Below are positions 5,290 through 44,949 of a DNA stretch of 64,000 nucleotides, piece after piece. The DNA comes from Alphaproteobacteria bacterium (GTDB lineage: Bacteria; Pseudomonadota; Alphaproteobacteria; GCA-2731375), in assembly GCA_965232515.1 (NCBI GenBank), contig CBDDPY010000002.1, forward strand, positions 1,632,001 to 1,696,000, written 5' to 3'. The notes beneath the pieces were generated by a model, which searched no databases, had not been told where the DNA came from, and saw only the letters and a program-made list of their open reading frames with translations. The stretch's first letter is position 1, and each line of letters starts with the position of its first letter. The translations under genes and the position numbers were made by a program.

Positions 5290-6057
5290 ATGGCGGACGC
5301 CATACTGACCGTCGAAGCGCTGACCAAGCGCTTCGGCGGTTTCACCGCGGTCGACGAAGTATCATTTACCGTCGGTGAAGGCGAGATCCTGGGCCTGATC
5401 GGGCCGAACGGTTCGGGCAAGAGCACGATCTTCAACATGATCGCCGGCTCGCTGCGGCCGACCGCCGGCACGATCCGGTTTCGTGGACAGGAGGTCGGTG
5501 GGCTGAGCCCGAACCGGATCTGCGCGCTGGGCATCGGCCGCACCTTTCAGATCCCCCGGCCGTTCCACAAGCTGTCGATCCTGGAGAACGTGGCGGTCGC
5601 CGGCTATTTCGGCCAGGGCCGCCGGGTCGGCAAGGCGGAGGCCTGGGAGACGGCGGCGCGATCGCTCGACATGGTCGGCCTCGCCTACGGCGATCACGCG
5701 TCGGTCGACATGCTGGGCGCGGCGGGGCTGAAGAAGCTGGAGCTGGCGCGCGCGTTGGCGACCAACCCGACGCTGCTGCTGGCGGACGAAAGCCTGGGCG
5801 GTCTCGACGAAAGCGAGATGGACCAGGCGGCCGACATGCTGGAGCGCATCCGCCGCGAGATGGGCATCACCATCATCTGGGTCGAGCACATCATGGGCGT
5901 GCTGATGCGCGTCGTCGACCGGGTCATGGTGCTGGACCATGGCGAGCTGATCTCGGAAGGCCTGCCGGCCGACGTGGCGCACGACCCGAGGGTGATCGAA
6001 GTCTATCTCGGCACCGACGCCAGCGACGTGCAGGCCAGTGTCGGGGCGGCGGGTTAG
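5290..6057 (+). CDS. ABC transporter ATP-binding protein (LivG-like)
   Basis: Walker A GPNGSGKS, GIGRTFQ, LLLADE, VEH, VIEVYLG. Confidence 0.94.
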   Translation: MADAILTVEALTKRFGGFTAVDEVSFTVGEGEILGLIGPNGSGKSTIFNMIAGSLRPTAGTIRFRGQEVGGLSPNRICALGIGRTFQIPRPFHKLSILENVAVAGYFGQGRRVGKAEAWETAARSLDMVGLAYGDHASVDMLGAAGLKKLELARALATNPTLLLADESLGGLDESEMDQAADMLERIRREMGITIIWVEHIMGVLMRVVDRVMVLDHGELISEGLPADVAHDPRVIEVYLGTDASDVQASVGAAG

Positions 6058-6084
6058 CGTGGCGATTTCCGCATCGCCCTTTTC

Positions 6085-6171
6085 GTCATGCCCGGAGTTG
6101 ATCCGGGCATCCAGGGGCATCGACCGCTGGCACGCTGGTGTCTGGATTGCCGGGTCAAGCCCGGCAATGAC
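6085..6171. repeat. REP-like composite palindromic element
   Basis: GTCATGCCCGGAGTTGATCCGGGCATCCA ... TGGATTGCCGGGTCAAGCCCGGCAATGAC: two hairpin units in inverted orientation, intergenic within the operon. Confidence 0.8.
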
Positions 6172-6200
6172 CAAGGTACGTGGGTTTTTGGGGCAACCGG

Positions 6201-6914
6201 ATGGCCGCCATGCTTGAACTGCAGAACGTGAATGCCGGCTATGGCGCGTTTCAGGCGCTGTTCGATGTCAGCCTGGAGGTCGCGGCCGGCGAGGCCGTCG
6301 CCGTGATCGGCCCGAACGGCGCCGGCAAGACGACGCTGATGCGGTTGATCTCGGGCTTGATCCCGGTGCGCTCGGGCCGGGTGGTCATGGAGGGGCAGCC
6401 GCTGGACGAGGTCAAGCCGCACGCCATCGTCGAGCTCGGCATCGCGCACGTACCGGAGAACCGGCGTTTGTTCCCGCGCATGACGGTCGAGGACAACCTG
6501 CGCATGGGCGCCTTCGCGAAGGCGGCGCGGGCACACTTCCGCGAGCGCCTGGACTACATCTACGAGTTGTTCCCGCGGCTGAAGGAACGCCGCGCGCAGT
6601 TCGCCGGCACCATGTCCGGCGGCGAGCAGCAGATGTGCGCCATCGGACGGGCGCTGATGTCGGGGCCGAAGCTGTTGCTGATGGACGAGCCGTCGGCCGG
6701 CCTGGCGCCCGTCGTGGTGCAGCAGGTGTTCGAGCTGGTCCGGCGCATCCGCAAGGAAGGCTATACCGTGCTGATCGTCGAGCAGAACGTGCAGCAGGTG
6801 CTGCAGGTCGTCGACCGCGCCTACCTGCTGGAAGCCGGCACGCTGAGATCCAGTGGCACGGCCGACGAGCTGCTGGCGAGCGAGAGCGTGCGCAAGGCGT
6901 ATATGGGCGTTTGA
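6201..6914 (+). CDS. ABC transporter ATP-binding protein (LivF-like)
   Basis: GPNGAGKT, VPENRRLF, MSGGEQQM, LMDEPS. Confidence 0.94.
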   Translation: MAAMLELQNVNAGYGAFQALFDVSLEVAAGEAVAVIGPNGAGKTTLMRLISGLIPVRSGRVVMEGQPLDEVKPHAIVELGIAHVPENRRLFPRMTVEDNLRMGAFAKAARAHFRERLDYIYELFPRLKERRAQFAGTMSGGEQQMCAIGRALMSGPKLLLMDEPSAGLAPVVVQQVFELVRRIRKEGYTVLIVEQNVQQVLQVVDRAYLLEAGTLRSSGTADELLASESVRKAYMGV

Positions 6915-30336: not shown

Positions 30337-30394
30337 ATGGTTTTCGGGATCGGTCCCGCCGGTCCCGCTCCAAAATTCACGAGGGGTAGGCGCG

Positions 30395-30637
30395 ATGCAA
30401 ACGATCTTCGCCATGGTGAAGTGCGAGCTGGGCAAGACCTACGATGTCGCCAGCGACGCGGTCGAGAATGTCGAGCACGTCTCCGAGGTTTATTCGATCT
30501 CAGGCCAGTACGACCTGATGATGAAGTGCTACCTCGACGACGACATGGACATCGGCCGCTTCATCAACGAGAAGATCCAGCTGATTCCCGGGGTGAAGGA
30601 CACCTTCACCATCATCACCTTCAAGTCGTTCGCCTGA
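30395..30637 (+). CDS. Stand-alone Lrp/AsnC ligand-binding (RAM) domain protein
   Basis: VSEVYSISGQYDLM...IQLIPGVKDTFT; no HTH; 80 aa. Confidence 0.85.
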   Translation: MQTIFAMVKCELGKTYDVASDAVENVEHVSEVYSISGQYDLMMKCYLDDDMDIGRFINEKIQLIPGVKDTFTIITFKSFA

Positions 30638-30654
30638 GCAGTGGGGGCCGCAAG

Positions 30655-31968
30655 ATGACGTCAGCGCCCACGCGCAACGCCGACCTCGACGTCGCCATCG
30701 CCGACGCCGAGGCGGCCTATGTCGCCGCCAATCCCAAGAGCGAGGCCCAGTACGAGGCCGCCTGCGCCGCCATGCCCGGCGGCAATACGCGGACCGTGCT
30801 GTTTTATCCGCCGTTTCCGCTGACGCTCTCGAAGGGCGAGGGCGCCCGAGTGCGCGACGCCGACGGTCACGACTATGTGGACTTTCTGGGCGAGTACACG
30901 GCCGGGCTCTACGGCCACTCCAACCCGGTGATCATGGCGGCGCTGCGCACGGCGCTCGAATCCGGCATCGTGCTGGGCGGCCATACCATGGCCGAAGCCC
31001 GGCTCGCGTCGGCCGTCTGCGACCGCTTCCCATCGATCGAACGGCTGCGCTTCACCAACTCCGGCACCGAAGCGAACCTGATGGCGGTGTCGACGGCGCG
31101 GGCCGTGACCGGCCGTTCGAAGGTGATGGTGATGAACGGCGGCTATCACGGCGGCGTCTTGTATTTCGCCGCGCCCGATATGCCGATCAACGCCCCCTTC
31201 CCCTATCTCAAAGGCCGCTACAACGATGTCGACGGCTGCCGCGATCTGATCCGGGCCAATGCCGACGATATCGCCTGCGTGATCCTGGAGCCGATGCTGG
31301 GCAGCGCCGGCTGCGTGCCGGCAAGCCGCGATTTCCTCGCCATGCTGCGCGAGGAAACCGAGAAGGCCGGCGCGTTGCTGATCTACGACGAGGTGATGAC
31401 CTCGCGGCTCGATCCCGGCGGCTTGCAGGGCCGGCACAACGTGCTGCCGGACCTGACCACGCTCGGCAAATATGTCGGCGGCGGGCTCAGCTTCGGCGCT
31501 TTCGGCGGCCGGGCCGACACTATCGACCGCTACGATCCGCGGCGGCCGGACGCCATTCCGCACGCCGGCACCTTCAACAACAACGTCCTGACCATGAGCG
31601 CCGGCCATGCCGGCCTGACCGAAGCCTATCCCGTCGACGCCGTGGCGCCGTTCAACGCCCAGGGCGACCGCCTGCGCGACCGGCTGAACGCCTTGTGCCG
31701 CGATCGCGGCCTGCCGGTGCAGTTCACAGGCATGGGCTCAATGCTGGCGGTGCATTTCCACGACGGCGACATCAACGACTTCGACGACGTGCTGGCCGGC
31801 CGCAACGAACTGCGGCCGCTGCTGCATCTCGACCTGCTGAGCCACGGCGTCTATGCGGCGCGGCGCGGCATGTTCGTGCTGTCGCTGCCCATGGGCGAAG
31901 CGGAATTCGACGCGCTGGTCAATGCGGTGGACGAGTTCCTGGCGACCCGTGGCAGCCTGATCGGCTAA
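30655..31968 (+). CDS. Class III aminotransferase (GSA aminomutase-like; resembles beta-amino acid transaminases)
   Basis: MPGGNTRTVLFYPPFP, FTNSGTEAN, GGYHGG, DEVMTSR, LGKYVGGG, HAGTFNNN. Confidence 0.88.
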   Translation: MTSAPTRNADLDVAIADAEAAYVAANPKSEAQYEAACAAMPGGNTRTVLFYPPFPLTLSKGEGARVRDADGHDYVDFLGEYTAGLYGHSNPVIMAALRTALESGIVLGGHTMAEARLASAVCDRFPSIERLRFTNSGTEANLMAVSTARAVTGRSKVMVMNGGYHGGVLYFAAPDMPINAPFPYLKGRYNDVDGCRDLIRANADDIACVILEPMLGSAGCVPASRDFLAMLREETEKAGALLIYDEVMTSRLDPGGLQGRHNVLPDLTTLGKYVGGGLSFGAFGGRADTIDRYDPRRPDAIPHAGTFNNNVLTMSAGHAGLTEAYPVDAVAPFNAQGDRLRDRLNALCRDRGLPVQFTGMGSMLAVHFHDGDINDFDDVLAGRNELRPLLHLDLLSHGVYAARRGMFVLSLPMGEAEFDALVNAVDEFLATRGSLIG

Positions 31969-32609
31969 CCCAGAACGATATCGAACTGACCGCCGAGCGC
32001 CTTCGCCTCGAGGTCCGGTCGCGGCCGCAGGTCGACGGTGAGCAGGCGCTGGCGCTCCAGTCCGCCGATGCGGCGATAGAGGAAGTCGCGGTCGTTGCGG
32101 GGCTCGCCGGCGATGTACATCTGCGTCACCAGACGGTCAAAGCCATTGCCCAAAACAGCGAAGTGGATGTGCGGCGTGCGGCTGCCATAGGGCACCGGCT
32201 TGATCGTGCGGAAGCGATAGCCGCCGTCGGCCGCGGTGATCGTCTCGCCATAGCCCTGGAAGTCCTCGTCCCGGCCGCCGCGGCGGGCGTCTGACGTGTG
32301 GATGTAGCGGCCGTTGGCGTCGCACTGCCAGATCTCGACCCGTGCGCCGGCAATCGGGTTTCCGGCGGTATCGACCACGCGACCGAAGACATGGGTGATC
32401 TCGCCGACGGCCTGCGCCGCACGGCCCTGCACGCGGACCAGATCGTTGTCAGTGTCGAGCGACAGGACGTTGGGGTAGAACGGCCCCGCCGACTGGCGCG
32501 GCGTCGTCGGCAGCGCGGCCGCGAGGGGCGTTTTGGTGGCCGCGAGGGTCGCAAACGAACCAATCGTGCCGGCGATGAGGTAGCGGCGGCTTGCGTTAAT
32601 TCGGACCAT
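31965..32609 (-). CDS. Intradiol ring-cleavage dioxygenase (protocatechuate 3,4-dioxygenase-like) with probable Tat signal
   Basis: SRRYL signal, GPFYP, VEIWQCDANGRY, FRTIKPVPY, RTPHIH. Confidence 0.88.
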   Translation of the reverse strand: MVRINASRRYLIAGTIGSFATLAATKTPLAAALPTTPRQSAGPFYPNVLSLDTDNDLVRVQGRAAQAVGEITHVFGRVVDTAGNPIAGARVEIWQCDANGRYIHTSDARRGGRDEDFQGYGETITAADGGYRFRTIKPVPYGSRTPHIHFAVLGNGFDRLVTQMYIAGEPRNDRDFLYRRIGGLERQRLLTVDLRPRPDLEAKALGGQFDIVLG

Positions 32610-32728
32610 GATTGGCATGTGGCCGGAAGGGACCGCGGTTTCAAGTCCGGGCGAACGCGGTCGCGAGGACTTGAACGGCACGTCGAACATCGACAACATC
32701 CGACCGTGCGTGGCGTGACAGGTGAGCG

Positions 32729-33874: not shown

Positions 33875-34249
33875 ATGACCGGTCTAGGCAACCGTATCGT
33901 GCCCAGCCTGCTGGTGCGCGACATGACCGAAACCCGCCGCTTCTATGTCGACGGCCTCGGCTTCCGCGTCACCGGCAGCTATCCCGACGAAGAAACGCCG
34001 GCCTGGCTCGAGCTGACCCGCGACGGCGTCTCACTGCAGTTCTACGCCGAGCCGCCCGTCGGCACGCCCGACCGGCCGACATTCAGCGGCACGCTCTACC
34101 TCTATCCCGACGACGTGGCCGCGCTCGCCGACGAATTGCGCGACCGTGTGCCGTTCTCCTGGGGCCCTGAGGTCATGGACTACGGCATGCGCGAATTCGC
34201 CGTCCAGGACCCCAACGGCTACTACATCGCCTTTACAGAGCCGGCGTGA
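33875..34249 (+). CDS. VOC/bleomycin resistance family protein
   Basis: FYVDGLGF, YGMREFAVQDPNGY. Confidence 0.9.
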   Translation: MTGLGNRIVPSLLVRDMTETRRFYVDGLGFRVTGSYPDEETPAWLELTRDGVSLQFYAEPPVGTPDRPTFSGTLYLYPDDVAALADELRDRVPFSWGPEVMDYGMREFAVQDPNGYYIAFTEPA

Positions 34250-34278
34250 CGGTCGCTCTCGACCATAACATCGCGTAG

Positions 34279-34403
34279 CCCTCACCCTCCCACGCGACTG
34301 CTGTCGCGTGGGTCCCTCCCTCTCCCGCAAGCGGGAGAGGGGTTGTTAGGCCGAAGCGGTGGCGGCCCCCTCTCCCGCTTGCGGGAGAGGGATGGGGTGA
34401 GGG
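34279..34403. repeat. Alphaproteobacterial palindromic intergenic repeat (CCCTCTCCCGCAAGCGGGAGAGGG type)
   Basis: Two inverted copies of the CCCTCTCCCGC-aa/tt-GCGGGAGAGGG hairpin bounded by CCCTCACCC ... GGGTGAGGG. Confidence 0.85.
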
Positions 34404-34479
34404 CAAGTGGTGGTGATCGAACCGGCCTACCCATCCGATGAGTATTGACTGCATCGCGCTTGTCCGGCTTGCGTAGTTA

Positions 34480-34509
34480 TTTTAGGTTTAAAACTTCGCA
34501 GTCTGAAAT
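34480..34509. promoter_or_regulatory. Candidate MarR operator of the aromatic CoA operon
   Basis: Perfect TTTTA-N4-TAAAA at 34480-34493, AT-rich in a GC-rich background, followed by a weaker TTC..CTGAAA site; just upstream of the operon. Confidence 0.55.
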
Positions 34510-34530
34510 ATTCGGAATGCCGGGAAACCC

Positions 34531-35340
34531 ATGTCCGACCGAGCCCAATCCGTTGACGACACCGCCCTGCACCTTGCCGGACAGCACGCGCTGGTGACTG
34601 GCGGCGGGCGGGGGATTGGGGCGGCGATCGCGGTCGAGCTGGCGCGACTGGGTGCGGATCTGACGCTGACCGGACGCTCGGAAGCGCACCTCGACATCAC
34701 GGCGACCGAAATCAACGACCGCTACCAGGTCCGGGTCGCGATCTGTCCGATGGATATCTCGGTCGAGACAGCGGTGCGGGACACCGTAGCGTTCGCGGCC
34801 GAGAAGCTGGGGCCACCGACGATCCTGATCAACAATGCCGGCGTCGCGCCGGCCGGCCCGTTCGAGGACCTGGACCTGGAGATCTGGCGGCACGCCTTCA
34901 GCGTCAATGTCGAGGGCGTGTTCCTGTGTACGCACGCCGTCCTGAACGGCATGCGCGAGGCCGGCTGGGGCCGAATCGTCAACATCGCCTCGACCGCCGG
35001 CCTGACGGCCTATCCCCATGTCGCGGCCTATGTCGCCTCGAAGCACGCGGTGGTCGGGATGACCCGGGCGCTGGCGCTGGAGCTGGCCCGCACCGGCGTT
35101 ACCGTGAACGCGGTCTGCCCGGGCTACACCGAGACCGACATGGCGCAGGGCGCGATCGATAACCTCGTCGCCGCCGGCCGCTCGGAGGACGAGGCCCGCA
35201 AACTGTTGGCGAAGAAGAACCCGCAAGGCCGTCTGGTGCAGCCGGACGAGGTCGCGCAGGCCGTCGGCTGGCTCTGCCTGCCGAGCTCCGCGGCCGTCAC
35301 CGGCCAGGCCATCGCCGTCGCCGGCGGCGAAGTGATGTAG
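34531..35340 (+). CDS. SDR, 3-hydroxyacyl-CoA dehydrogenase-like (aminobenzoyl-CoA cluster type)
   Basis: TGGGRGIG, NNAG, YVASKH, VCPGYTETD, NPQGRLVQPDEVA, AVAGGEVM. Confidence 0.9.
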   Translation: MSDRAQSVDDTALHLAGQHALVTGGGRGIGAAIAVELARLGADLTLTGRSEAHLDITATEINDRYQVRVAICPMDISVETAVRDTVAFAAEKLGPPTILINNAGVAPAGPFEDLDLEIWRHAFSVNVEGVFLCTHAVLNGMREAGWGRIVNIASTAGLTAYPHVAAYVASKHAVVGMTRALALELARTGVTVNAVCPGYTETDMAQGAIDNLVAAGRSEDEARKLLAKKNPQGRLVQPDEVAQAVGWLCLPSSAAVTGQAIAVAGGEVM

Positions 35341-35353
35341 GCCCAGGCCCGCC

Positions 35354-35869
35354 ATGGACGATCCGACGCCATTGCAAACGAACGGCGCGCCGGACAAGGA
35401 AGCCGGCGTCCAGCACGAAGACAAGCTGGAGCTGCGCGTCTGGCTGCGCCTGTTGACCTGCGCCACCATGATCGAGCGCGAGGTGCGCGGCCGCCTGCGC
35501 CGCGATTTCGAGATCACGCTGCCGCGCTTCGACGTGCTGGCCCAGCTCGACCGCGCCACGGATGGCCTGACCATGGGCGAGCTGTCGGGCCGGCTGATGG
35601 TCTCGAACGGCAACATCACCGGGCTGATCGACCGGCTGGTGGCGGAAGGCCTGGTGACGCGGGCCGCCAAGCCCGGCGACCGGCGCAGCGTGCACGTGCG
35701 CCTGACCGACAAGGGCAAGCAGGCCTTCGACGCCATGACCCCGGCGCACGAGGCCTGGATCGACGAGATGCTGGCTGGCCTGTCGCGCCGCGAGATGGCC
35801 GAGCTCTACGACCTGCTGGCGCGGTTGAAATCCTCGGCGTCTCCCGCCGAGATGGAAACGGGTGACTGA
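35354..35869 (+). CDS. MarR family transcriptional regulator
   Basis: [42 protein letters not shown]. Confidence 0.94.
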
Positions 35870-37083
35870 TGGCGGATAAATCGTTTCTCGACTGGCCGTT
35901 CTTCGAAGACGGCCACCGGGCCTTGCATGTGGAGCTGGAGACCTGGGCGCGCGACAACCTGGCGCCGCTGGAGCACGGCGAGGACGCCGATGCGATCTGC
36001 CGCGAGATGGTGCGGCGGTTGGGCGACGGCGGCTGGCTTTCCTACGTGATCCCGCAGGCCTATGGCGGCATTTACGAACGGCTCGACGTGCGCTCGATCT
36101 GCCTCGCCCGCGAGGTGCTGGCGCGCACGGCGGGCGGCCTCGCCGACTTCGCCTTCGTCATGCAGGGGCTTGGCACCGGCGCGATCTCGCTGTTCGGCAG
36201 CGAGGAGATCAAACGCCGCTACCTGCCACCGGTCTGTGCCGGCGACCGCATCGCCGCCTTCGCCTTATCGGAGCCGCAGGCCGGTTCGGATGTCGCCAAC
36301 GTGTTGACCACGGCGCGCGAGGATGGCGACGACTTCGTGCTGGACGGTCAGAAGACCTGGATCTCGAACGGCGGCATCGCGCACCAATACGTGGTCTTCG
36401 CGCGCACCAGCGACGACGGTGCCAAGGGCTTGAGCGCCTTCGTCGTCGAGGCCGACACGCCGGGCCTGGAGATCACCGAGCGCATTGAGATCATTGCGCC
36501 GCATCCGATGGCGACGCTGACCTTCAAGGACTGCCGCGTGCCGAAGACGCATCTGTTGGGCGAGGTCGGCCAGGGCTTCAGGATCGCCATGACCAGCCTC
36601 GATATCTTCCGCACATCGGTGGGCGCGGCCGGCCTCGGCTTTTCAAGGCGAGCGCTCGACGAAGCGATCGGGCGCTGTCAGGAGCGCGAGGCCTTCGGCC
36701 AGAAGATCGCCGAGTTCCAGCTGGTGCAAGAAAAGCTCGCCGACATGGCGACCGATATCGACGCCAGCGCGCTGCTGATCTACCGCTCGGCCTGGACCAA
36801 AGATAGCGGCGCCGCGCGCGTCACCCGCGAGGCCTCGATGGCGAAGATGTATGCGACCGAGGCCGCGCAGCGCGTGGTCGACGCCGCCGTGCAGCTGTTC
36901 GGCGGCACGGGCGTGGTCGCGGGCGCGACGGTGGAACGCCTCTATCGCGAGGTCCGGGCCCTGCGGATCTACGAGGGCACGACGGAGATCAACAAGCTGG
37001 TGATCGCGCGCCAGACGCTGGCCGCGCAGGCCGAAGCCGCGGCCATGGAAAAGGCGCTCGACCGTGCCGGAGGCGCCCGATGA
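35869..37083 (+). CDS. Acyl-CoA dehydrogenase
   Basis: [43 protein letters not shown]. Confidence 0.94.
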
Positions 37084-38549
37084 AGCTGCTGGAACCGCTC
37101 GATATCAACGGCATGGTTCTGCCGAACCGCGTCATCGTGCCGGCCATGGTGACGCGGCTCTCGGGCGAGGACGGCTATGTCAACGACGACATCATCGACC
37201 GCTACGCGCGCTATGCCGAGGGGCATGTCGGGCTGATCGTCGTCGAGGCGACGGCGATCCACCAGTCGAAGTCGGGCCCGCTGCTGCGCCTGTCGGACGA
37301 CGCCTTCGTGCCGGGCCACCGCGAGCTGGTGAAGCGCGTGCACGACGCATCGGATTCGAAGGTCGTGCCGCAGATCATCCACTTCATGAAGATCGCGCGC
37401 TCCGGCTGGCGGCAGACCATCGAGATGCTGGAGCAGGCGGATATCGACAAGATCATCGCCGATTTCGGCACCGCCGCGGCGCGGGCGCGCGAGGCCGGCT
37501 ATGACGGCGTCGAGCTGCACTCGGCGCACGCCTATACCCTGTCGTCGTTCCTGTCGCGCCACAACAAGCGCCGCGACGGCTATACCGGCAAGACGCTGGA
37601 AGGCCGGCTGAAGATGTTCGGCCAGGTGATGACCGAGGTGCGCCGGCAGGTCGGCCACGACTGGCCGGTCGGCGTCCGGTTCCTGGCCGAGGAGGCGATC
37701 AAGGACGGCTACGCCCTGCCCGACTCCAAGCGCATCGCGCTGCGCATGGCGCAGATGGGCGCCGACTACATCTCGCTGTCGGTCGGCGGCAAGTTCGAGG
37801 ACGCCGTGCCCAAGCCCGGCCACCCGGTCTATCCCTATACCGGCTATTCCGGCGACCGCTGCATGCCAGGCGACTGGTATCCGGACCTGCCGCACGCACA
37901 CCTCGCCGCCGGCATCAAGCAGTACATCAACGCCAAGGGCTATGACGTGCCGGTGGTTTCGATCGGCAAGATCAACGATCCGCGGGAGGCCGAGAGCCTG
38001 CTGCAGGACGGCAAGGCCGACCTGATCGGCATGGCCCGCCAATTGCTGGCCGATCCGGACTGGCCGCGAAAAGTGGAGGAAGGCCGGCCGGACGAGATCC
38101 TGCATTGCATCTATTGCAACGTCTGCAAGCAGCTCGACGAGAACTTCAAGAAAGTCACCTGCTTCCTCTGGCCGAAGAACAACCTGCAGGCCCCGGCCGA
38201 CATCGCCGGCGCCGTGCACCCGACCTGGCCGGCGGGCGGCGCCGGGCTCAGCGCCGACGTCGTGGACGGCCGGATCAAGCTGGCCTGGAACAAGGCCGAG
38301 GGCGACGGCATCATCGGCTACGACGTCTATCGGGCCGAGGACGGCGAGGCCGAGACGTCCTGCATCGAGGCGGTGAAGAGCGCGAAATACGCCGACCGGC
38401 TGGTGCTGGGCGGCCTGACCTACCGCTACTATGTCCGCGCCTTCGACGCCCAGGGCCGCGCCAGCCCGCCGTCGAACGCCATCACCATAGAGATGCCGAT
38501 GCCCGACTTCGAGCCGAGCCTGCCAGACGGAGCCGTGGAACATGCCTGA
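37080..38549 (+). CDS. NADH:flavin oxidoreductase (Old Yellow Enzyme) with Fe-S motif and C-terminal fibronectin type III domain
   Basis: [36 protein letters not shown]-x11-C, then IKLAW...GYDVYR...[16 protein letters not shown]. Confidence 0.88.
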
Positions 38550-40194
38550 GCCGAAGGCGCCGGGCGGCACGTCCGCCCACGTCGACACGTTCGCCGCCGA
38601 CCATCTGCCGCCGCAAGCCGAGTGGCCGCCGATGGACTACAGCCAGCCGGCGGAGCTGGCGAAGTACCCCGATCGCATGAACTGCGCCGCGTGGCTGCTG
38701 GACCGGCAGATCGAGAAGTTCGGCGAACGGCCGGTGCTGCGCACGCCGGACAGCATGTGGACCTATAACGAGCTGCACGACGTCGCCAACCGGATCGCCA
38801 ACGTGCTGGTCGACGAGCTGGGCGTCGAGCCGGGCAACCGGGTACTGATGCGGAGCCCGAACAATCCGATGTATGTCGCCTGCTGGTTCGCGGTGATGAA
38901 GGTGGGTGCCGTCGCGGTGGCGACCATGCCGCTGCTGCGCGCCCGCGAACTGACATACATTGCCGACCTGGCGCAAGTTAAGGTCGCCTTGTGCGACAAG
39001 CGCCTGGCCGAGGAAATGGAGATCACGGTCGAGAAGTCGGCGACGCTGAAGAAGGCGATCTATTTCAACGGCGACGACGCGGACGGTCTGGAAGCGCGGC
39101 TGTCGGACAAATCGGCGAGCTTCGACAATGTCGACACGGCGGCCGACGATGTCTGCCTGATCGCCTTCACCTCGGGCACCACCGGCCAGCCCAAGGGCTG
39201 CATGCATTTCCACCGCGACATCCTGGCGATCTGCGATACCTTCTCGCGCTACATCCTGCAGCCCGGGCCGGACGATATCTTCGCGGGCTCGCCGCCCATT
39301 GCCTTCACCTTCGGCCTGGGCGCGCTGGTCACCTTCCCCATGCATGCCGGCGCCTCGAGCCTGCTGATCGAGAGCTACACGCCAGATACCATGCTCGCCG
39401 CCATCGCCGAGCACGAGGTGAGCGTGCTGTTCACGGCGCCAACCATGTACCGGGCGCTGACGCCGCTCGCCGCAAAGCAGGAGCTGCCGAGCCTGAAGAA
39501 ATGCGTCTCGGCCGGCGAGAGCCTGCCGAAGCCGACCTGGGACGACTGGCACGCCGCCACCGGCATCCGGATCATTGACGGCATCGGCTCGACCGAACTG
39601 CTGCATATCTTCATCGCCTGCGCCGGCGACGACATCCGCCCGGGCGCGACCGGCAAGCCGATCCCGGGCTACGCGGCGACCATCGTGGACGACGCCGGCA
39701 ACGAGGTGCCCGACGACACGGTCGGACGCCTCGCCGTGCGCGGGCCGACGGGCTGCCGCTACATGTCGAACCCGGAGCGCCAGGCAACCTACGTGCGGAA
39801 CGGCTGGAACCTGACGGGCGATGCCTATCTGCGCGATGCCGACGGCTATTTCTGGTACCAGGCGCGGACCGACGACATGATCATTTCGGCCGGCTACAAC
39901 ATCGCCGGGCCGGAGGTGGAATCGGTCCTGATGGAACACCCGAGCGTCGCCGAATGTGCTGTTGTGGGCGCGCCGGACCCGGAGCGCGGCGAGATCGTCA
40001 AGGCTTTCGTGGTGCTGCGCGACGGCGCCGCGGCCAACGACGAAACCGCGAAGGCGCTGCAGGACCACGTCAAGGCGACCATCGCGCCCTACAAGTATCC
40101 GCGCGCCGTCGCCTTCCTCGACGCCCTGCCGAAGACCCAGACCGGCAAGATCCAGCGCTTCGTCCTGCGCGAGCAGGAAGCGGCCGCCAAGTGA
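38542..40194 (+). CDS. Aromatic acid-CoA ligase, 2-aminobenzoate-CoA ligase-like
   Basis: SAHVDTFAADHLPP, FTSGTTGQPKGCMHFHRD, DGIGSTE, ARTDDMIISAGYNI, APYKYPR, TGKIQRF. Confidence 0.88.
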   Translation: MPEPKAPGGTSAHVDTFAADHLPPQAEWPPMDYSQPAELAKYPDRMNCAAWLLDRQIEKFGERPVLRTPDSMWTYNELHDVANRIANVLVDELGVEPGNRVLMRSPNNPMYVACWFAVMKVGAVAVATMPLLRARELTYIADLAQVKVALCDKRLAEEMEITVEKSATLKKAIYFNGDDADGLEARLSDKSASFDNVDTAADDVCLIAFTSGTTGQPKGCMHFHRDILAICDTFSRYILQPGPDDIFAGSPPIAFTFGLGALVTFPMHAGASSLLIESYTPDTMLAAIAEHEVSVLFTAPTMYRALTPLAAKQELPSLKKCVSAGESLPKPTWDDWHAATGIRIIDGIGSTELLHIFIACAGDDIRPGATGKPIPGYAATIVDDAGNEVPDDTVGRLAVRGPTGCRYMSNPERQATYVRNGWNLTGDAYLRDADGYFWYQARTDDMIISAGYNIAGPEVESVLMEHPSVAECAVVGAPDPERGEIVKAFVVLRDGAAANDETAKALQDHVKATIAPYKYPRAVAFLDALPKTQTGKIQRFVLREQEAAAK

Positions 40195-41210
40195 CGGCGG
40201 CGGCCGAAGCCGCCTGGCGGGCGGCGACACGGATGCATCACCGCTATCTGACCGGGTTGATCCTCTACACCCTGCAGAAGCGCGGCGAGGAAGCCGCGAC
40301 GGAACTGGTGTTCCGCACCTTCCGCGAGCAGCATCACGAGAAGTTCCTGCCCGGCCTGAAGCGGCTCGGCCTCGAGGGGCTGCCGCCGGCGGTGGCGGTG
40401 GGGCGGTATTTCTATCTGGCGAACGGCATGGGCGGCGTGAAGATGGAGCTGATGCCGGAATCCGAGACCAAGGTCTGGATCCGCTATCCGCCGCCGCGCT
40501 GGATTTGGGAGGGCGCGGCGATCTGCGCTGTGCCGACGCCGGTATCGCTCGCCTTCCCCCGCGCCTTCCACTCGCAGTGCGGCGTCAGCATGGGCGTGCC
40601 GAACCTGGGCTTCGTCTGCACCGCCGTCACCACCGACGGCGAGCCGGGCCTGGAAGGCTACTTCAAGATGTTTGACCGTGACCTGGCGGGCGACGAACGC
40701 CTGCAGTTCGCCCGCGGCGAGCCGAGCCCGGACTTCGATTCCGCCGCGGCGCCGGTCATCGACCTGACGCCGTCACAACGCGTGAAGTCGCGGCGGAACT
40801 ATGCGCTGCAGTTCGTGCGCACCATGCTGCCGATCGCCGTCGACATGTTCGGCCCCGATCTGCCGCGCGAGGCGGCCGTGCTGATCGGCATGCACCATGC
40901 CGAGGAAACGGCGGAGATACTTGAAAAAAATACCAATGATATCAATGGCTTTTCCGATTATTTTGCTGCGATGCTTGAGGGCAGCGGCGAGACCGTCGAG
41001 CGAGATGGTTCGGCGATCCGCATGCACGGCTGGCGGCTGATGCAGGACAAGCCGGACGTCACGGCCGGCGTGTTCGACGCCTGGCACGGCCTGTGGGAAG
41101 GCGCGCTAATGACCGCCAACCGGCGTCTCACCCTGCATATTGAGCAGCGCGCGGACCGCACTTCAGAACATTGGCAATGGCGCGTGGGTGACGCTGCCCG
41201 GCCGGTCTAG
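40191..41210 (+). CDS. Hypothetical protein translationally coupled to the CoA ligase
   Basis: GTGA overlap with the ligase stop; 339-aa globular ORF (YPPPRWIWEG, LGFVCT, PGLEGY). Confidence 0.75.
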   Translation: MTAAAEAAWRAATRMHHRYLTGLILYTLQKRGEEAATELVFRTFREQHHEKFLPGLKRLGLEGLPPAVAVGRYFYLANGMGGVKMELMPESETKVWIRYPPPRWIWEGAAICAVPTPVSLAFPRAFHSQCGVSMGVPNLGFVCTAVTTDGEPGLEGYFKMFDRDLAGDERLQFARGEPSPDFDSAAAPVIDLTPSQRVKSRRNYALQFVRTMLPIAVDMFGPDLPREAAVLIGMHHAEETAEILEKNTNDINGFSDYFAAMLEGSGETVERDGSAIRMHGWRLMQDKPDVTAGVFDAWHGLWEGALMTANRRLTLHIEQRADRTSEHWQWRVGDAARPV

Positions 41211-41797
41211 CGTTTGCTCCAGGCCAAGGCGTCCTCGAGGCGGTCGTCGCCCCAGAAGATCTCGCCGTCGACCGCGAATGTCGGCGAACCGAAGATGCCC
41301 AGCGCGCGGGCCGCGTCGGTCTCGTCCTCTAATCGTTGGACATTGTCGTCCGCGTTGGCGGCGGCGATGACGGCGGCCGGATCCTTGTCCAGAGACCGAA
41401 GCACGTGTTCGACGTTGTCGTCGACGCCGAGCGGCCGATCTTCAAGGAACCAGGCGCGATAGCTCGCCTTCGTGTAGTCGGGGCACCAGCCCTCCTTGGC
41501 CGCCAGCACGCCGACGCGGTTGGCAAGCAGATCGGGATCGACCGGATATTGCGGCTGGCCGCGGTATTCGAGGCCGTAGCCGGCCGCGCGGCGTTCCAGA
41601 TCGCGCCACATATAGGCCGCCTTCGCCGGCTTGGTGGCGAAGGGAATGTTGTCCATTTCCAGCATGATCGCGCGGACGTTGAACGGGCGCCAGTTGACAT
41701 TGACGCCAGCCTCCGCCGCCGCCTGCTCGATCCGCATGACGCTCAGGTAGGTGTAGGTGCTGCCGTAGAAAAAGAAGAAATCGATCGATGCGGACAT
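41207..41797 (-). CDS. 2-hydroxychromene-2-carboxylate isomerase/kappa-GST (DsbA family)
   Basis: IDFFFFYGSTYTYL, YMWRDLERRA, GIFGSPTF, FWGDDRLE. Confidence 0.92.
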   Translation of the reverse strand: MSASIDFFFFYGSTYTYLSVMRIEQAAAEAGVNVNWRPFNVRAIMLEMDNIPFATKPAKAAYMWRDLERRAAGYGLEYRGQPQYPVDPDLLANRVGVLAAKEGWCPDYTKASYRAWFLEDRPLGVDDNVEHVLRSLDKDPAAVIAAANADDNVQRLEDETDAARALGIFGSPTFAVDGEIFWGDDRLEDALAWSKR

Positions 41798-42111: not shown

Positions 42112-43887
42112 ATGAATACGCATCTCAGCCTCGCCGACAAGGACGTCGCTATCCCGCCGGCCGACAGCCCGGTCGCACCCGATACACGCGGCATGAACTT
42201 CTATGCCGCGGACGCGTCGTTGCGCGGATTGCTGCCGCTCTATCTCGACGCAGAGACCTTGGGCCAGCTGGAACCGCATCTGCAGCGCATGGGCGAGCTG
42301 GCGGCGAACCGGCTGGAAGACCTGGCGATGACCGCGGACAAACACCCGCCTGTGCTGGTCCAGCGCACGCCGCGCGGCGAGGATCGGCAGAGCATCGAGT
42401 ACCACCCCGCCTATCGCGAGATGGAGCGGATCGCCTTTGGCGAATTCGCGCTGCACGCCATGAGCCACCGCGGCGGCGTGCTGGGCCGCGAGACGCCCTG
42501 GCCGGTGACAGCGAAATACGCGCTGTCCTACCTGTTCGTGCAGGCCGAATTCGGTCTGCTCTGCCCGGTGAGCATGACCGACACCGTCCATGGCCTGATT
42601 GCCAAGAACGGCCCGGACGTGCTGCGCGAAAGATATGGCGCGCCGATGCTGCGCCAGGACCTGAACGCGCTCTATCAGGGCGCCATGTTCATGACCGAGC
42701 GGCACGGCGGCTCGGATGTCGGGGCCAACCAGGTCGTGGCCCGGCAGGCGGCCGGCGAATGGCGGCTCTACGGCGACAAATGGTTCTGCTCGAACGTCGA
42801 CGCCGAGGTCACGGCGGTGCTGGCGCGGCCCGAGGGCGCCGGCCCGGGCACCAGGGGCCTGGGCCTGTTCCTGCTGCCGCGGCACCTGGACGACGGCCGG
42901 CCGAACCGCTATCGCATCGTGCGCCTGAAAGACAAGCTCGGCACACGGTCGATGGCGAGCGGCGAGGTCGTTCTGGAAGGCGCGACGGCCCATGTGATCG
43001 GCGAGATCGACCGCGGCATCCTGCAGATGATGGAAACCGTAAACGCCTCGCGCCTGTCGCAGAGCATGCGGGCCGCGGGCGTGATGCGCCGCTGCTGGCA
43101 CGATGCGCTGACCGTGGCGGGGCATCGGGTGGCCTGGGGCCGGCCCATCGCCGAGTTCCCGCTGCTGCGCCGGCAGTTGCTGAAGATCTTGCTGCCGGCC
43201 GAGGAATGCCTGTCGTTCCTGCTGTTCACCAGCCAGGCGCTGGACAAGGCCGAGGCAGGCGACGACGAAGCGGCGCAACTGCTGCGACTGGCGACGCCGC
43301 TGATCAAGTTCCGCAGCAACCGCGACCAGCGGCGCATCACCGGCGACGCGCTCGAGATCCGCGGCGGCAACGGCTATATCGAGGACTGGGCAAACCCGCG
43401 CCTGGTGCGCGACGGGCATCTGGGCGTGCTGTGGGAGGGCACCAGCAACATGGTCGCGCTCGACGCCATGCAGCGCGCCATCGCCAAGAAGGGTGCGCAC
43501 CGGGTGTTCCAGGCCGCGCTGCACGAACGGCTCGACGTCGCCGCCAAGATCCCGACGACCGTGCGCGACCGCCTGCGCGGCCATGTCGACCGCGCCGTCG
43601 CCTATGCCGAGCGCGTGGCCGGCCAGGGCGAGGCCGGCGAGGCGCAGGCGCGCAAGGCGTCGTCAGCGCTCTATCACGCCGCCAGCGCCGCCCTGCTCTG
43701 CTGGGAAGCGGCGATGCTGGACGATCCGAGGCGGTTGCTGCTCGCCGGGCTTGTCGACCGCTTCAAGCTGTCGCCGCAGGACCCGCTGAGCGACGACGAC
43801 GCGGCGCTGGAAACGGCCGCCGCCGCGACGCTGATCGACGGCGCGCCGACGACGCTGGCGGACGCCGCCGCGCTGATCGCGGGCTGA
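42112..43887 (+). CDS. Acyl-CoA dehydrogenase, AidB-like
   Basis: CPVSMTD, FMTERHGGSDV, KWFCSN, RLKDKLGTRSMASGE, GGNGYIE, WEGTSN. Confidence 0.92.
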   Translation: MNTHLSLADKDVAIPPADSPVAPDTRGMNFYAADASLRGLLPLYLDAETLGQLEPHLQRMGELAANRLEDLAMTADKHPPVLVQRTPRGEDRQSIEYHPAYREMERIAFGEFALHAMSHRGGVLGRETPWPVTAKYALSYLFVQAEFGLLCPVSMTDTVHGLIAKNGPDVLRERYGAPMLRQDLNALYQGAMFMTERHGGSDVGANQVVARQAAGEWRLYGDKWFCSNVDAEVTAVLARPEGAGPGTRGLGLFLLPRHLDDGRPNRYRIVRLKDKLGTRSMASGEVVLEGATAHVIGEIDRGILQMMETVNASRLSQSMRAAGVMRRCWHDALTVAGHRVAWGRPIAEFPLLRRQLLKILLPAEECLSFLLFTSQALDKAEAGDDEAAQLLRLATPLIKFRSNRDQRRITGDALEIRGGNGYIEDWANPRLVRDGHLGVLWEGTSNMVALDAMQRAIAKKGAHRVFQAALHERLDVAAKIPTTVRDRLRGHVDRAVAYAERVAGQGEAGEAQARKASSALYHAASAALLCWEAAMLDDPRRLLLAGLVDRFKLSPQDPLSDDDAALETAAAATLIDGAPTTLADAAALIAG

Positions 43888-43890
43888 TCC

Positions 43891-44949
43891 ATGCAGAGCC
43901 CGGGCATGCGCGACCTGCCGCTGCTGCCGACCATGGGCGTCGGCAGCTATGCGACGCCGGGTTGGCTGTTTCCGGTGCGCGAGGCCATGGGCCAGGGTCG
44001 CCTCGGACCGGACGACATCACGGAGGCCTTCGAGGACGCAACCCGCATCGTCATCGCCGACCAGATCGAGGCCGGGGTCGACATCGTCTCGGACGGCGAG
44101 CTGCAGCGGCAGCGCTTCGTCTACGAGATGTATGACCGCATCACCGGCATCGACCGCCGGCCTTCGCCGCGCCGGTTGGGCGTGCCGGGCTACGACAAAG
44201 CGCCAAAGTTCGTCGCCAACGAGCGCCTGCGGGCGCCGAACGGCCTGGGCCTTGTGGACGAATTCAACGACCTGAAGCGCCTGGCGCCCGAAAGCCGCCT
44301 GAAGATCGCCTTCCCCGGCCCCCTCACCTTCGCCCGCAATATCCGGCCCGGCGCGGCTTATGGCGACGGCGACAGCGCCAATGCCGACCTGATGGCCGAC
44401 ATCGTCGCCATGGTGCGGGACGAGGTCGCCGCGCTCGCGATGGCCGGGGCCGAGTTGATCCAGATCGACGAGCCGGGCCTGACCAACCTGCCCGACTTCG
44501 TCACCATCGAGAACGCCGCCGCGCCGATCAACGCCGCCATCGACGGCTACGCCGAGCGCACGGCCGTGCATGTTTGCTATGGCAATAACGCCAGCCGGCC
44601 CTACGCCCGCCGCGATCTGGCGCGGCTGCTGCCGGCGATCCGGGCGCTGCAATCGCCATTGCTGTCGCTGGAGTTCGCCAACCGCGAGATGGCAGAGCTG
44701 GAACTTCTGGGCGAGCTGTCGGGCCGGTTCGAAATCGCCGCCGGCCTGGTCGACGTGAAGTCGTTCTACGAGGAAACACCGGAAGATATCGCCGCCCGCA
44801 TCCGTGCGACGCTCGAATATGTGCCGGCAGACCGGCTGTCGGTAACACCGGATTGCGGCTTCTCGGCCATCCCGCGCTGGCTCGCCCGGCACAAGATGCA
44901 GGCCATGGTTAACGGAACCTTGCTCGTGCGGGCCGAACTGACCGGCTGA
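43891..44949 (+). CDS. Cobalamin-independent methionine synthase II family (single barrel)
   Basis: VGSY, SDGELQR, IQIDEP, HVCYGN, LEFA, PDCG zinc ligands. Confidence 0.9.
   Translation: MQSPGMRDLPLLPTMGVGSYATPGWLFPVREAMGQGRLGPDDITEAFEDATRIVIADQIEAGVDIVSDGELQRQRFVYEMYDRITGIDRRPSPRRLGVPGYDKAPKFVANERLRAPNGLGLVDEFNDLKRLAPESRLKIAFPGPLTFARNIRPGAAYGDGDSANADLMADIVAMVRDEVAALAMAGAELIQIDEPGLTNLPDFVTIENAAAPINAAIDGYAERTAVHVCYGNNASRPYARRDLARLLPAIRALQSPLLSLEFANREMAELELLGELSGRFEIAAGLVDVKSFYEETPEDIAARIRATLEYVPADRLSVTPDCGFSAIPRWLARHKMQAMVNGTLLVRAELTG

Follow-up and report, generated by a model that had tools for sequence, protein, structure and literature searches.

The operon at positions 34477-41210 of the window (the whole 64,000-nucleotide stretch of DNA analysed) probably forms one of the two parts of a split MarR regulon that degrades an ortho-substituted benzoate aerobically as its CoA ester; anthranilate is the likeliest substrate, salicylate a possible one. 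It contains a 489-amino-acid Old Yellow Enzyme (OYE-489), and the same genome encodes, 1.25 Mb away, a bifunctional aryl-CoA monooxygenase/reductase (ACMR, defined by NCBIfam model NF006101). The co-occurrence of OYE-489 with ACMR and a relative that carries both in a single operon indicate an aerobic aryl-CoA pathway to which OYE-489 has been added, not an oxygenase-free one. The first-pass annotation had proposed a pathway that lacks the monooxygenase and is possibly O2-independent or directed at another substrate; this is not supported, since the ACMR-family gene lies behind the same operator as the operon.

The operon comprises an operator palindrome followed by six genes, and Pfam and NCBIfam profiles confirm the gene order and families first assigned to it. 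The predicted MarR operator (34477-34496) is a 20-bp imperfect palindrome, TTATTTTAGGTTTAAAACTT, followed after 34 nt by the start codon of the SDR gene. The genes, all on the + strand, encode an SDR of 269 amino acids (34531-35340; adh_short PF00106, 205.9 bits), a MarR-family transcriptional regulator of 171 (35354-35869; PF01047, 50 bits), an acyl-CoA dehydrogenase (ACAD) of 404 with three ACAD Pfam domains (35869-37083), OYE-489 (37080-38549; PF00724, 164.5 bits), an aryl-acid CoA ligase of 550 (38542-40194; AMP-binding, 261.5 bits) and a hypothetical protein, HYP, of 339 (40191-41210). The near-universal overlap of stop and start codons that had been noticed is present at four of the five junctions (MarR/ACAD, 1 nt; ACAD/OYE, 4 nt; OYE/ligase, 8 nt; ligase/HYP, GTGA), and only SDR and MarR are separated, by 13 nt. 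Profile searches against Pfam and NCBIfam found neither a monooxygenase domain nor an enoyl-CoA hydratase (ECH) inside the operon, as had been claimed.

The ligase scores 386.2 bits against the benzoate-CoA ligase family model TIGR02262 (cut-off 375.25), and its closest solved structure is that of an anthranilate-CoA ligase (4WV3, 311 bits), followed by a benzoate-CoA ligase (2V7B); its start codon is uncertain, as family alignments start near residue 41-50. The genome also encodes kynureninase, a source of anthranilate (321.6 bits; cut-off 246.4), and this gene and the closest solved ligase together hint at anthranilate as the substrate. The top NCBIfam matches of the SDR are 3-hydroxybutyrate dehydrogenase-type models, each below its cut-off. 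The ACAD likewise reaches the cut-off of no NCBIfam equivalog, its best match being acryloyl-CoA reductase AcrC (294.8 bits; cut-off 640) and its second cyclohexane-1-carbonyl-CoA dehydrogenase (263.5 bits; cut-off 650).

Orthologues of these genes adjoin ACMR elsewhere. Ten alphaproteobacterial loci from genomes without OYE-489 have the order ACMR-SDR-MarR-ECH-ACAD-ligase, with MarR not found in one of them, ACAD in two and the ligase in three. Their products are 42-54% (SDR), 46-59% (MarR, in nine of the ten), 57-64% (ACAD) and 52-54% (ligase) identical to those of the window, and their ECH is 65-71% identical to that of a relative. The window operon is thus well described as a rewired aminobenzoyl-CoA-type cluster, with a backbone shared at 42-71% identity.

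In Azoarcus evansii the abm clusters encode an SDR, a MarR regulator, an acyl-CoA dehydrogenase, a ligase, an enoyl-CoA hydratase and a bifunctional flavin monooxygenase/OYE reductase. In outline (PMC4539516, PMC3534580), the ACMR of the aerobic 2-aminobenzoyl-CoA pathway is 2-aminobenzoyl-CoA monooxygenase/reductase. The window operon shares with that pathway an anthranilate/benzoate-type CoA ligase, MarR, an SDR and ACAD orthologous to the ACMR neighbours in the ten clusters and, elsewhere in its genome, a gene of the ACMR family under the same operator. It differs in that its ACMR is unlinked and the operon has no hydratase, in that an OYE-[4Fe-4S]-Fn3 enzyme is inserted between ACAD and ligase, and in the V4R-like gene appended at its end.

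The salicylyl-CoA 5-hydroxylase route, to which the Streptomyces sdg genes belong, is a second point of comparison. NF006101 is named 'bifunctional salicylyl-CoA 5-hydroxylase/oxidoreductase' in NCBIfam, and the ACMR-family protein of this genome exceeds its cut-off (1161.3 bits against 1078); by analogy, a fused FAD monooxygenase/OYE protein would hydroxylate an aryl-CoA in both. Unlike that route, the window operon has no identified gentisate-type genes, and its ligase is a single enzyme of the benzoate-CoA-ligase family.

The split of the regulon rests on the operator. An operator-like palindrome had been placed at 34480-34509; it exists, but at the coordinates given above. A repeat search recovered only AGGTTTAAAACT of it, and the palindrome by itself is weak, but a box of consensus TTATTTTAAGCTTAAAATAA precedes the SDR gene in 21 of 23 related operons with at most four mismatches, far above chance. 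Searched as a degenerate 20-mer, it has exactly two zero-mismatch sites in the 7.39-Mb genome, one at the window operon and the other 65 nt upstream of the start codon of the ACMR-family gene (G000:C2:2917494-2919776). Of 11 loci with a stand-alone ACMR gene, 7 have the box immediately before that gene (at most four mismatches), and two of the four without it are from genomes that lack OYE-489; nor was it found before the ACMR gene of locus L154. Within the organism's own order it is found 27-71 nt upstream of ACMR in nine of 17 loci at up to three mismatches and was not found at that threshold in the other eight, and among the canonical clusters it precedes ACMR in six of ten. From this conservation we infer that MarR binds the box. 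It had been foreseen that the canonical genes might lie elsewhere under the same operator, and this holds for the monooxygenase; a hydratase orthologue, 71% identical to the cluster ECH, is present as well (C2:5998124-5998930), but a search of its surroundings gave no operator.

OYE-489 and ACMR also occur together. In a sample of the class, ACMR matches are present in all nine genomes with OYE-489 and in 34 of 201 overall, and in the organism's own order in 20 of 21 genomes with OYE-489 against two of 12 without it, although these counts are not independent, as the genomes are related. One relative (L103) carries SDR-MarR-ECH-ACAD-OYE-ligase-ACMR on one strand. Conservation of the full gene set, which had been put forward as a check, is partial: among 24 related OYE-489 loci the SDR is found in 23, MarR in 22 and an adjacent ligase in 23, but an ACAD, a facultative member of this cluster type, in only five and HYP in none.

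The [4Fe-4S]-type motif CxxCxxC-x11-C reported for the OYE (C343-x2-C346-x2-C349-x11-C361) stands up to alignment. Its cysteines, together with H147, H150 and Y152, are invariant in all 28 family sequences and align with the cluster cysteines of trimethylamine dehydrogenase (TMADH), E. coli 2,4-dienoyl-CoA reductase (DCR) and histamine dehydrogenase. OYE-489 shares the FMN TIM barrel and a CxxCxxC-x(11-12)-C motif at the same position with the FadH-type Fe-S OYEs (1PS9, 2-naphthoyl-CoA reductase 6QKG, BaiCD, TMADH and histamine dehydrogenase), several of which use CoA esters as substrates, and its top Foldseek matches are YqjM-type OYEs, 1PS9 and 6QKG. It is, however, much shorter than these enzymes (489 amino acids against about 640-730), retains a YqjM-type H-x-x-H-x-Y site, and has at residues 237-268 an invariant, family-specific loop that they lack. 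Neither a Pfam search nor the AF2 model revealed an FAD/NAD(P)H module, and the place of that FAD/NAD(P)H (or ADP-binding) half is taken by a sandwich of about 90 residues, so the enzyme would need an external electron carrier or direct use of NAD(P)H at FMN. The best 120 homologues (474-552 amino acids, 71-96% identity) bear generic names only, and a literature search for this enzyme type found no paper.

We note that this C-terminal part, a seven-strand, Fn3-like beta-sandwich (residues ~391-471), was absent from the first-pass annotation. It is seen in the AF2 model (barrel plus sandwich) and by an fn3 match of E 0.023, and is further supported by a precomputed PF00041 match in one family member, P0103.

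It is possible, though unlikely, that OYE-489 itself attacks the ring, as an O2-independent and ATP-independent dearomatising (or reductively deaminating or dehydroxylating) aryl-CoA reductase that acts directly on the product of the ligase and gives the pathway an entry point additional to that by ACMR, for instance when oxygen is scarce. Such a role would suit the tie to the ligase, which adjoins OYE-489 in nearly every locus and is fused to it in six proteins of 863-1034 amino acids (an OYE-489 homologue plus an AMP-binding ligase domain), as well as the commonest operon form, SDR-MarR-OYE-ligase (14 of 16 loci in the order), which holds no other ring-modifying enzyme. ACMR and OYE-489 are also reciprocal in operons (the ten canonical loci against 23 of the 24 OYE-489 loci), one genome (G592, 96% complete) has OYE-489 and no ACMR match, and the fold and cysteine motif are those of the dearomatising OYE 2-naphthoyl-CoA reductase. 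Benzoyl-CoA epoxidase BoxB is encoded in 32 of 33 genomes of the order, hence a benzoyl-CoA product would be usable, but so near-universal a gene does not discriminate between the readings. On the other side stand the shared operator, the co-occurrence of ACMR with OYE-489 (9/9 and 20/21 genomes) and the operon that bears both; moreover, the FAD/NAD(P)H module through which NCR-type enzymes receive electrons is absent from OYE-489, and no conserved gene for a low-potential donor lies beside it in the related loci examined. Monocyclic aryl-CoA is also far harder to reduce than naphthoyl-CoA.

It is improbable that OYE-489 runs oxidatively like TMADH, desaturating or aromatising an alicyclic or hydroaromatic acyl-CoA and passing electrons from FMN through [4Fe-4S] to ETF; together with the ACAD it would then channel reduced ring acids towards the aryl-CoA pathway. 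Its cysteine region does match best those of trimethylamine and histamine dehydrogenases, which donate to an external acceptor, it has no NAD(P)H module, and the host has BoxB and ACMR among its oxygen-dependent routes. The neighbouring ACAD, with its second match to cyclohexane-1-carbonyl-CoA dehydrogenase, also points this way, but it is far below the cut-off of that model and an ACAD is present in just five of 24 loci; the ligase most resembles those for aromatic acids and scores only 230.8 bits against the cyclohexanecarboxylate ligase model (cut-off 792.3), ETF genes did not turn up in the flanks examined, and to aromatise a ring before ACMR dearomatises it again would be uneconomical. 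Very improbably, the common operator reflects only a common regulator and the window operon degrades a different acid (another substituted benzoate or a phenylpropanoid, for example) with no biochemical link to ACMR: neither its SDR nor its ACAD fits a specific equivalog, and the flanking genes differ among relatives (aldehyde dehydrogenase, esterase, MetE-like, aminotransferase), but its backbone genes have their orthologues in ACMR clusters, its ligase is closest to anthranilate-CoA ligase, and the co-occurrence and the hybrid operon point to one pathway.

HYP has no Pfam or NCBIfam match even at E<=10, and its 2238 homologues, wherever named, are all 'hypothetical'. Its GTG start overlaps the ligase stop codon and is backed by conserved N-terminal residues. 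In the AF2 model (pLDDT 92) each half superposes on V4R/Bet3/H-NOX-like domains: by VIA-align, residues 1-169 match the phenol-sensor domains of PoxR/DmpR (5FRU; Z 7.7, 156 residues) and residues 201-337 match TRAPP Bet3 (2CFH; Z 9.9, rmsd 3.3, 137 residues), and Foldseek gives probabilities near 1, with E-values of only 5e-3 to 4e-2. HYP is thus predicted to be a tandem V4R/Bet3/H-NOX-like fold; it differs from PoxR, DmpR and Bet3 in having two such domains and no DNA-binding or output domain. Of 80 homologue-bearing loci, one has the homologue beside this operon, and among the loci examined HYP is a genus-specific add-on. It would be a small-molecule-binding protein, but its many invariant polar residues may be compatible with an enzymatic role.

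In the split regulon that we favour, the ligase would convert the acid to its aryl-CoA, and the aryl-CoA or the acid would probably release MarR and thereby de-repress the two promoters that carry the box, at the window operon and at the distant ACMR-family gene. ACMR would make the O2-dependent attack on the ring and the first reduction, and the SDR and ACAD would carry out beta-oxidation-like steps. We infer a role in this pathway for OYE-489, which, in close partnership with the ligase, would most likely reduce a carbon-carbon double bond in a CoA ester with a ring enone or enamine (the reverse being desaturation) at its FMN barrel and classical His-His-Tyr ene-reductase site, with electrons from ETF or ferredoxin or directly from NAD(P)H. 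Candidate substrates are the ACMR product, 2-amino-5-oxocyclohex-1-ene-1-carboxyl-CoA, and an off-pathway 5-hydroxy-aryl-CoA, and the ligase-OYE fusions and gene order fit action on the primary aryl-CoA at least as well. The stand-alone ACMRs share 59-68% identity with one another but only 51-55% with the ACMRs of canonical clusters, so they may catalyse a somewhat different reaction. Canonical clusters work without OYE-489, which is therefore not required downstream of every ACMR; where present, it would be an extra enzyme beside ACMR and no substitute for it.

The operon occupies positions 34477–41210 of the plus strand of the window, including a palindromic operator-like box, and contains six plus-strand genes. 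An SDR gene (34531–35340) is followed by genes for a MarR regulator (PF01047; 35354–35869), an acyl-CoA dehydrogenase (ACAD; 35869–37083), the 489 amino acid Old Yellow Enzyme homologue OYE-489 (37080–38549), an AMP-forming CoA ligase (38542–40194) and HYP, a 339 amino acid protein without a family match (40191–41210). Overlaps of 1, 4, 8 and 4 nt are present at four of the five junctions, and the SDR and MarR genes are 13 nt apart. Among 24 other OYE-489 loci, the ligase gene adjoins that of OYE-489 in 23 (the 24th locus ends at a contig end), and SDR is found in 23, MarR in 22, ACAD and an enoyl-CoA hydratase (ECH) in five each, and HYP in none. By these counts the invariant core is SDR-MarR-OYE-ligase, and the ACAD of the window is a facultative member of the operon type; the gene set picked out by the first-pass annotation is thus conserved in its core but not in ACAD or HYP. 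OYE-489 is encoded in 9/201 genomes of a sample of the class and in 21 of the 33 genomes of the host's order. A second and wider sample, labelled "phylum", gave no OYE-489 among 400 further genomes, with three candidates scored per genome and with the listed genomes belonging to the host's own class, and we read this as a patchy distribution and not as absence.

The backbone of the operon is that of a known type of cluster. The bifunctional aryl-CoA monooxygenase/reductase (ACMR, NF006101) is present in 34 of the 201 class genomes, and ten loci in genomes that lack OYE-489 have the gene order ACMR-SDR-MarR-ECH-ACAD-ligase (MarR was not found in one of these, ACAD in two and the ligase in three). 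The proteins of these canonical clusters are 42–54% (SDR), 46–59% (MarR), 57–64% (ACAD) and 52–54% (ligase) identical to those of the window, and their ECH is 65–71% identical to that of a relative of the operon. Gene order and identities together indicate that the window operon shares their backbone; its SDR and ACAD are orthologous to those found beside ACMR, and ECH is absent from it. In one relative, locus L103, all the parts lie on one strand in the order SDR-MarR-ECH-ACAD-OYE-ligase-ACMR. The likeness that had been proposed to the aminobenzoyl-CoA pathway of Azoarcus is therefore supported. In the pathway outlines given for aerobic 2-aminobenzoyl-CoA metabolism in PMC4539516 and PMC3534580, the enzymes after ring attack are described solely as "β-oxidation" enzymes. 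The operon is genuine and conserved, a variant on a pathway type already known, and one of its enzymes belongs to an uncharacterised family; a full-text search, whose coverage ends short of subscription journals, returned no paper on the operon or on the architecture of its OYE.

ACMR-type clusters include the monooxygenase gene, whereas the window operon lacks it and the same genome carries it unlinked. Neither the operon nor the window region holds an ACMR gene, and the one gene of the genome that passes the NF006101 cut-off of 1078 bits, with a score of 1161.3, lies 1.25 Mb from the window in the same contig (C2:2917494–2919776). The two are joined by the box, a 20 bp palindrome of consensus TTATTTTAAGCTTAAAATAA that precedes the SDR gene in 21 of 23 related operons and whose copy in the window, at 34477–34496, is TTATTTTAGGTTTAAAACTT. 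A degenerate form of this pattern has exactly two zero-mismatch sites in the 7.39 Mb genome, the window box and a site that precedes the start codon of ACMR by 65 nt. The first-pass reading that the pathway has no monooxygenase is consequently not supported, and ACMR belongs with the operon at the level of the regulon and not of the cluster, since its gene is distant but lies behind the same operator. The box is also directly upstream of stand-alone ACMR genes in 7/11 loci with at most four mismatches (of the four misses, two are in genomes that lack OYE-489, one is a second copy of ACMR and one is locus L154), 27–71 nt before ACMR in 9 of 17 loci of the order with at most three mismatches, and upstream of ACMR in six of the ten canonical clusters. 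A MarR regulator and a palindromic operator, to which MarR is predicted to bind, are thus common to the canonical clusters and the window operon, and from these patterns the window operon and the distant ACMR gene appear to form a split regulon with the box as its putative MarR operator. Co-occurrence of OYE-489 and ACMR is strong: ACMR is found in all nine OYE-489 genomes of the class sample, and in the host's order in 20 of 21 genomes with OYE-489 versus 2 of 12 without it, counts that overstate independence because the genomes are kin.

No sigma-70 promoter was found on the plus strand at 34240–34560 at the threshold set; the operator is preceded by a conserved CTTGCC block, which may be the −35 element. 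Between a glyoxalase-like gene and the operator, at 34289–34395, lie nested GC-rich hairpins, with two copies of CCCTCTCCCGC..GCGGGAGAGGG that form a 29 nt inverted repeat and with a further 10 nt hairpin, and these look like REP-type intergenic repeats. We note that a third, weaker box, TTGTTTTAGGCCTAAAATGT, with three mismatches, lies elsewhere in the contig (C2:926615–926634, locus L193) between divergent genes for a RidA/L-PSP-like protein and a class I/II aminotransferase; it may be there by chance, since a reversed-pattern control gives as many sites at up to three mismatches (6 versus 6). An enamine/imine deaminase of the RidA type would fit a pathway with an enamine CoA intermediate.

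A hydratase is also encoded elsewhere. The gene at C2:5998124–5998930 is an orthologue of the cluster ECH at 71% identity and scores 468.5 bits against the NF006107 cut-off of 330, and no operator was found near it. Of the two genes whose presence elsewhere under the same operator was to count against the first-pass reading, that of the monooxygenase was found so placed and that of the hydratase was found without the operator. The ECH gene is flanked by an AliA-like (cyclohexanecarboxylate-CoA-ligase-like) gene, which scores 687.5 where the cut-off is 792.3, and by one for an SDR that is BadH-like (268.6, cut-off 431.2). The surrounding locus (L115, C2:5988500–6008400) also includes a branched-chain-type ABC transporter and may be a separate alicyclic-acid cluster. 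The window operon itself does not match the cyclohexanecarboxylate (ali/bad) pathway at the AliA, AliB or BadH level: its ligase scores 230.8 against 792.3 for the AliA-type TIGR03208, its ACAD 211.3 against 575.35 (TIGR03207) and 263.5 against 650 (NF043006), and BadH is absent from the best 25 of the 219 families matched by its SDR.

OYE-489 has an Oxidored_FMN barrel (PF00724, 164.5 bits) and the cysteine motif C343-x2-C346-x2-C349-x11-C361, so the CxxCxxC-x11-C motif noted in the first-pass annotation is indeed there. Its four cysteines are conserved without exception in the family (28 of 28 members) and align with the [4Fe-4S] cysteines of trimethylamine dehydrogenase (TMADH, 1DJN), E. 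coli 2,4-dienoyl-CoA reductase (1PS9) and histamine dehydrogenase (6DE6), and they form a putative [4Fe-4S] site. The sequence H147-S-A-H150-A-Y152, also invariant in 28/28 members, aligns with the HxAHGY of YqjM-type structures and of ACMR OYE domains, and OYE-489 thereby has the residues of the classical YqjM-like ene-reductase site, a His-x-x-His/Asn pair with a Tyr proton donor. Barrel and cysteine motif (CxxCxxC-x(11–12)-C) are shared with the two-module iron-sulfur OYEs of the FadH type (2,4-dienoyl-CoA reductase, NCR, BaiCD, TMADH), but the C-terminal nucleotide-binding module is theirs alone. No C-terminal FAD/NAD(P)H-binding or ADP-binding domain is present in the 489 residues, and its alignments to the models for BaiCD, mycofactocin OYE_2 and bilirubin reductase break off around position 250–380 of about 640. 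In its place the AF2 model (mean pLDDT 76.6) has a seven-strand β-sandwich at residues 391–471, which give a weak fn3 match (E 0.023). The Cys loop (344–371) and a family-specific, nearly invariant loop (237–268) are of low confidence in this model, whose top Foldseek matches are YqjM-type OYEs, 1PS9 and 6QKG. The best 120 database relatives are 474–552 amino acids long, 71–96% identical, mostly from Alphaproteobacteria and carry generic names only.

OYE-489 is tightly tied to the ligase. A search for relatives of residues 230–489 in proteins 1.75- to 5-fold longer (E ≤ 1e-20) gave six proteins of 863–1034 amino acids; all six carry an AMP-binding ligase domain fused to the OYE-489 homologue, and none carries a nucleotide-binding module. 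By Pfam the domain order in one fusion, P0243, is OYE, β-sandwich, AMP-binding, AMP-binding_C. The operon ligase itself is of the benzoate/anthranilate type, scoring 386.2 bits with TIGR02262, whose cut-off is 375.25, and its best solved relative is the anthranilate-CoA ligase 4WV3 (311 bits), with benzoate-CoA ligases next. This similarity and a kynureninase encoded in the same genome are indirect hints that anthranilate or salicylate may be the substrate; kynureninase fits anthranilate as the natural substrate but proves nothing.

In the best reading of these data, OYE-489 would be an accessory ene-reductase or dehydrogenase of the ACMR route, its substrate being a CoA ester from that route with a ring enone or enamine, and would exchange electrons through its Fe-S cluster with an external carrier. 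The ligase fusions and the gene order suit action on the primary aryl-CoA at least equally well, and they keep alive the idea of an O2-independent dearomatising reductase. In its full form that idea would make OYE-489 a new kind of dearomatising aryl-CoA reductase, docked to the ligase by its Fn3 domain, and would give aerobes a way round ACMR that spares oxygen and is under the same repressor. With FMN and [4Fe-4S] but no NAD(P)H module of its own, the enzyme would need neither O2 nor ATP to reduce an ortho-amino- or ortho-hydroxybenzoyl-CoA to a β-enamino/β-keto cyclohexene-carboxyl-CoA whose ring can be opened hydrolytically; we consider this reading improbable. As a third possibility, OYE-489 may run oxidatively, as TMADH does. 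That it stands in for a broken reductase half of ACMR is rejected, the HxAHGY motif being kept in 22/22 aligned ACMR sequences. BoxB is uninformative as a discriminator for a benzoyl-CoA-forming reaction, since nearly all genomes of the order carry it (32/33). In one relative, and in its locus L098 alone, the ligase is followed by a gene (5447–6481, minus strand) for a 344 amino acid protein whose matches to 4Fe-4S-dicluster motifs are weak and below the cut-offs (E 3e-4 to 7e-3), a candidate electron partner.

The last gene, HYP, most likely starts at a GTG that overlaps the ligase stop codon, since homologues conserve residues before the first ATG. Its AF2 model (pLDDT 92) has two similar helix-sheet domains: residues 201–337 superpose on Bet3 (VIA-align Z 9.9, rmsd 3.3 over 137 residues) and residues 1–169 on the phenol-sensing domains of PoxR/DmpR, on BcsD and on H-NOX (Z about 7.7), the Foldseek E-values being weak (5e-3 at best). 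The predicted fold resembles that of the V4R/Bet3-like small-molecule-binding family; fold alone is no proof of function, and with its many invariant polar residues the protein may instead be an enzyme. Two sets of HYP family members, 26 and 24 in number, gave no match to Pfam; ATC hydrolase (PF14196), a lead only at an Atlas score of 0.88, was likewise matched by hmmscan in none of them and was set aside. A profile search gave no bridge to a named family, since the best 150 of its 828 matches are all clear members and no named family is among the matches listed. It is a large family, with 2238 homologues, 828 clusters (50% identity) and members in no fewer than 584 species genomes, and just one of 80 loci with a homologue adjoins the operon, L009 of a close relative. 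HYP is thus seen beside the operon solely in the window and L009, which argues against a conserved pathway member. The flanks of 18 other homologue loci, taken from crude ORF calling with many ORFs unnamed, are variable (MMPL, ECH, ACAD, TctC, luciferase-like and others). None of the genes that follow the ligase in relatives is homologous to HYP; they encode, among others, the protein with weak Fe-S motifs, a 2-hydroxyacid dehydrogenase or a thioesterase.

Several neighbouring genes may also be noted. A DsbA/HCCA-isomerase-like gene (41207–41797, minus strand) is convergent on HYP and overlaps its end by 4 nt; a 34% identical paralogue (L106:7118–7714) lies near the stand-alone ACMR-family gene, in a locus that also has a dienelactone-hydrolase-family gene, a second SDR gene and an EamA transporter. 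Just downstream of the operon, 42112–44949 encodes an AidB-like acyl-CoA dehydrogenase (591 amino acids) and a MetE-catalytic-domain-like protein (352 amino acids), and a MetE-like gene recurs near the ligase in L009, L175 and L182; a link to the pathway is possible. Upstream, 30337–32699 contains a gene for a class-III aminotransferase of 543 amino acids that is much extended at its N-terminus, and a minus-strand gene for an intradiol-dioxygenase-like protein (Dioxygenase_C, 244 amino acids); class-III aminotransferase genes flank the operon in L175 and L181 too. In four minimal SDR-MarR-OYE-ligase loci (L177, L178, L179 and L182) an aldehyde dehydrogenase gene adjoins that of the SDR on the opposite strand, followed in two of the four by an Abhydrolase_3 esterase gene.

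The OYE-[4Fe-4S]-Fn3 architecture is widespread, and we found no characterised member of it. OYE-type enzymes are workhorses of biocatalysis, and one wired to an external electron carrier would therefore be of practical interest. The locus offers a clean, testable regulon with a 20 bp operator, a MarR regulator, two promoters and a conserved partner enzyme. To our knowledge, what follows ring attack in the aerobic 2-aminobenzoyl-CoA pathway has never been resolved step by step. The reaction of OYE-489, once found, would either fill a gap in the classical pathway or, on the bolder reading, reveal an O2-independent dearomatisation of monocyclic aryl-CoA.
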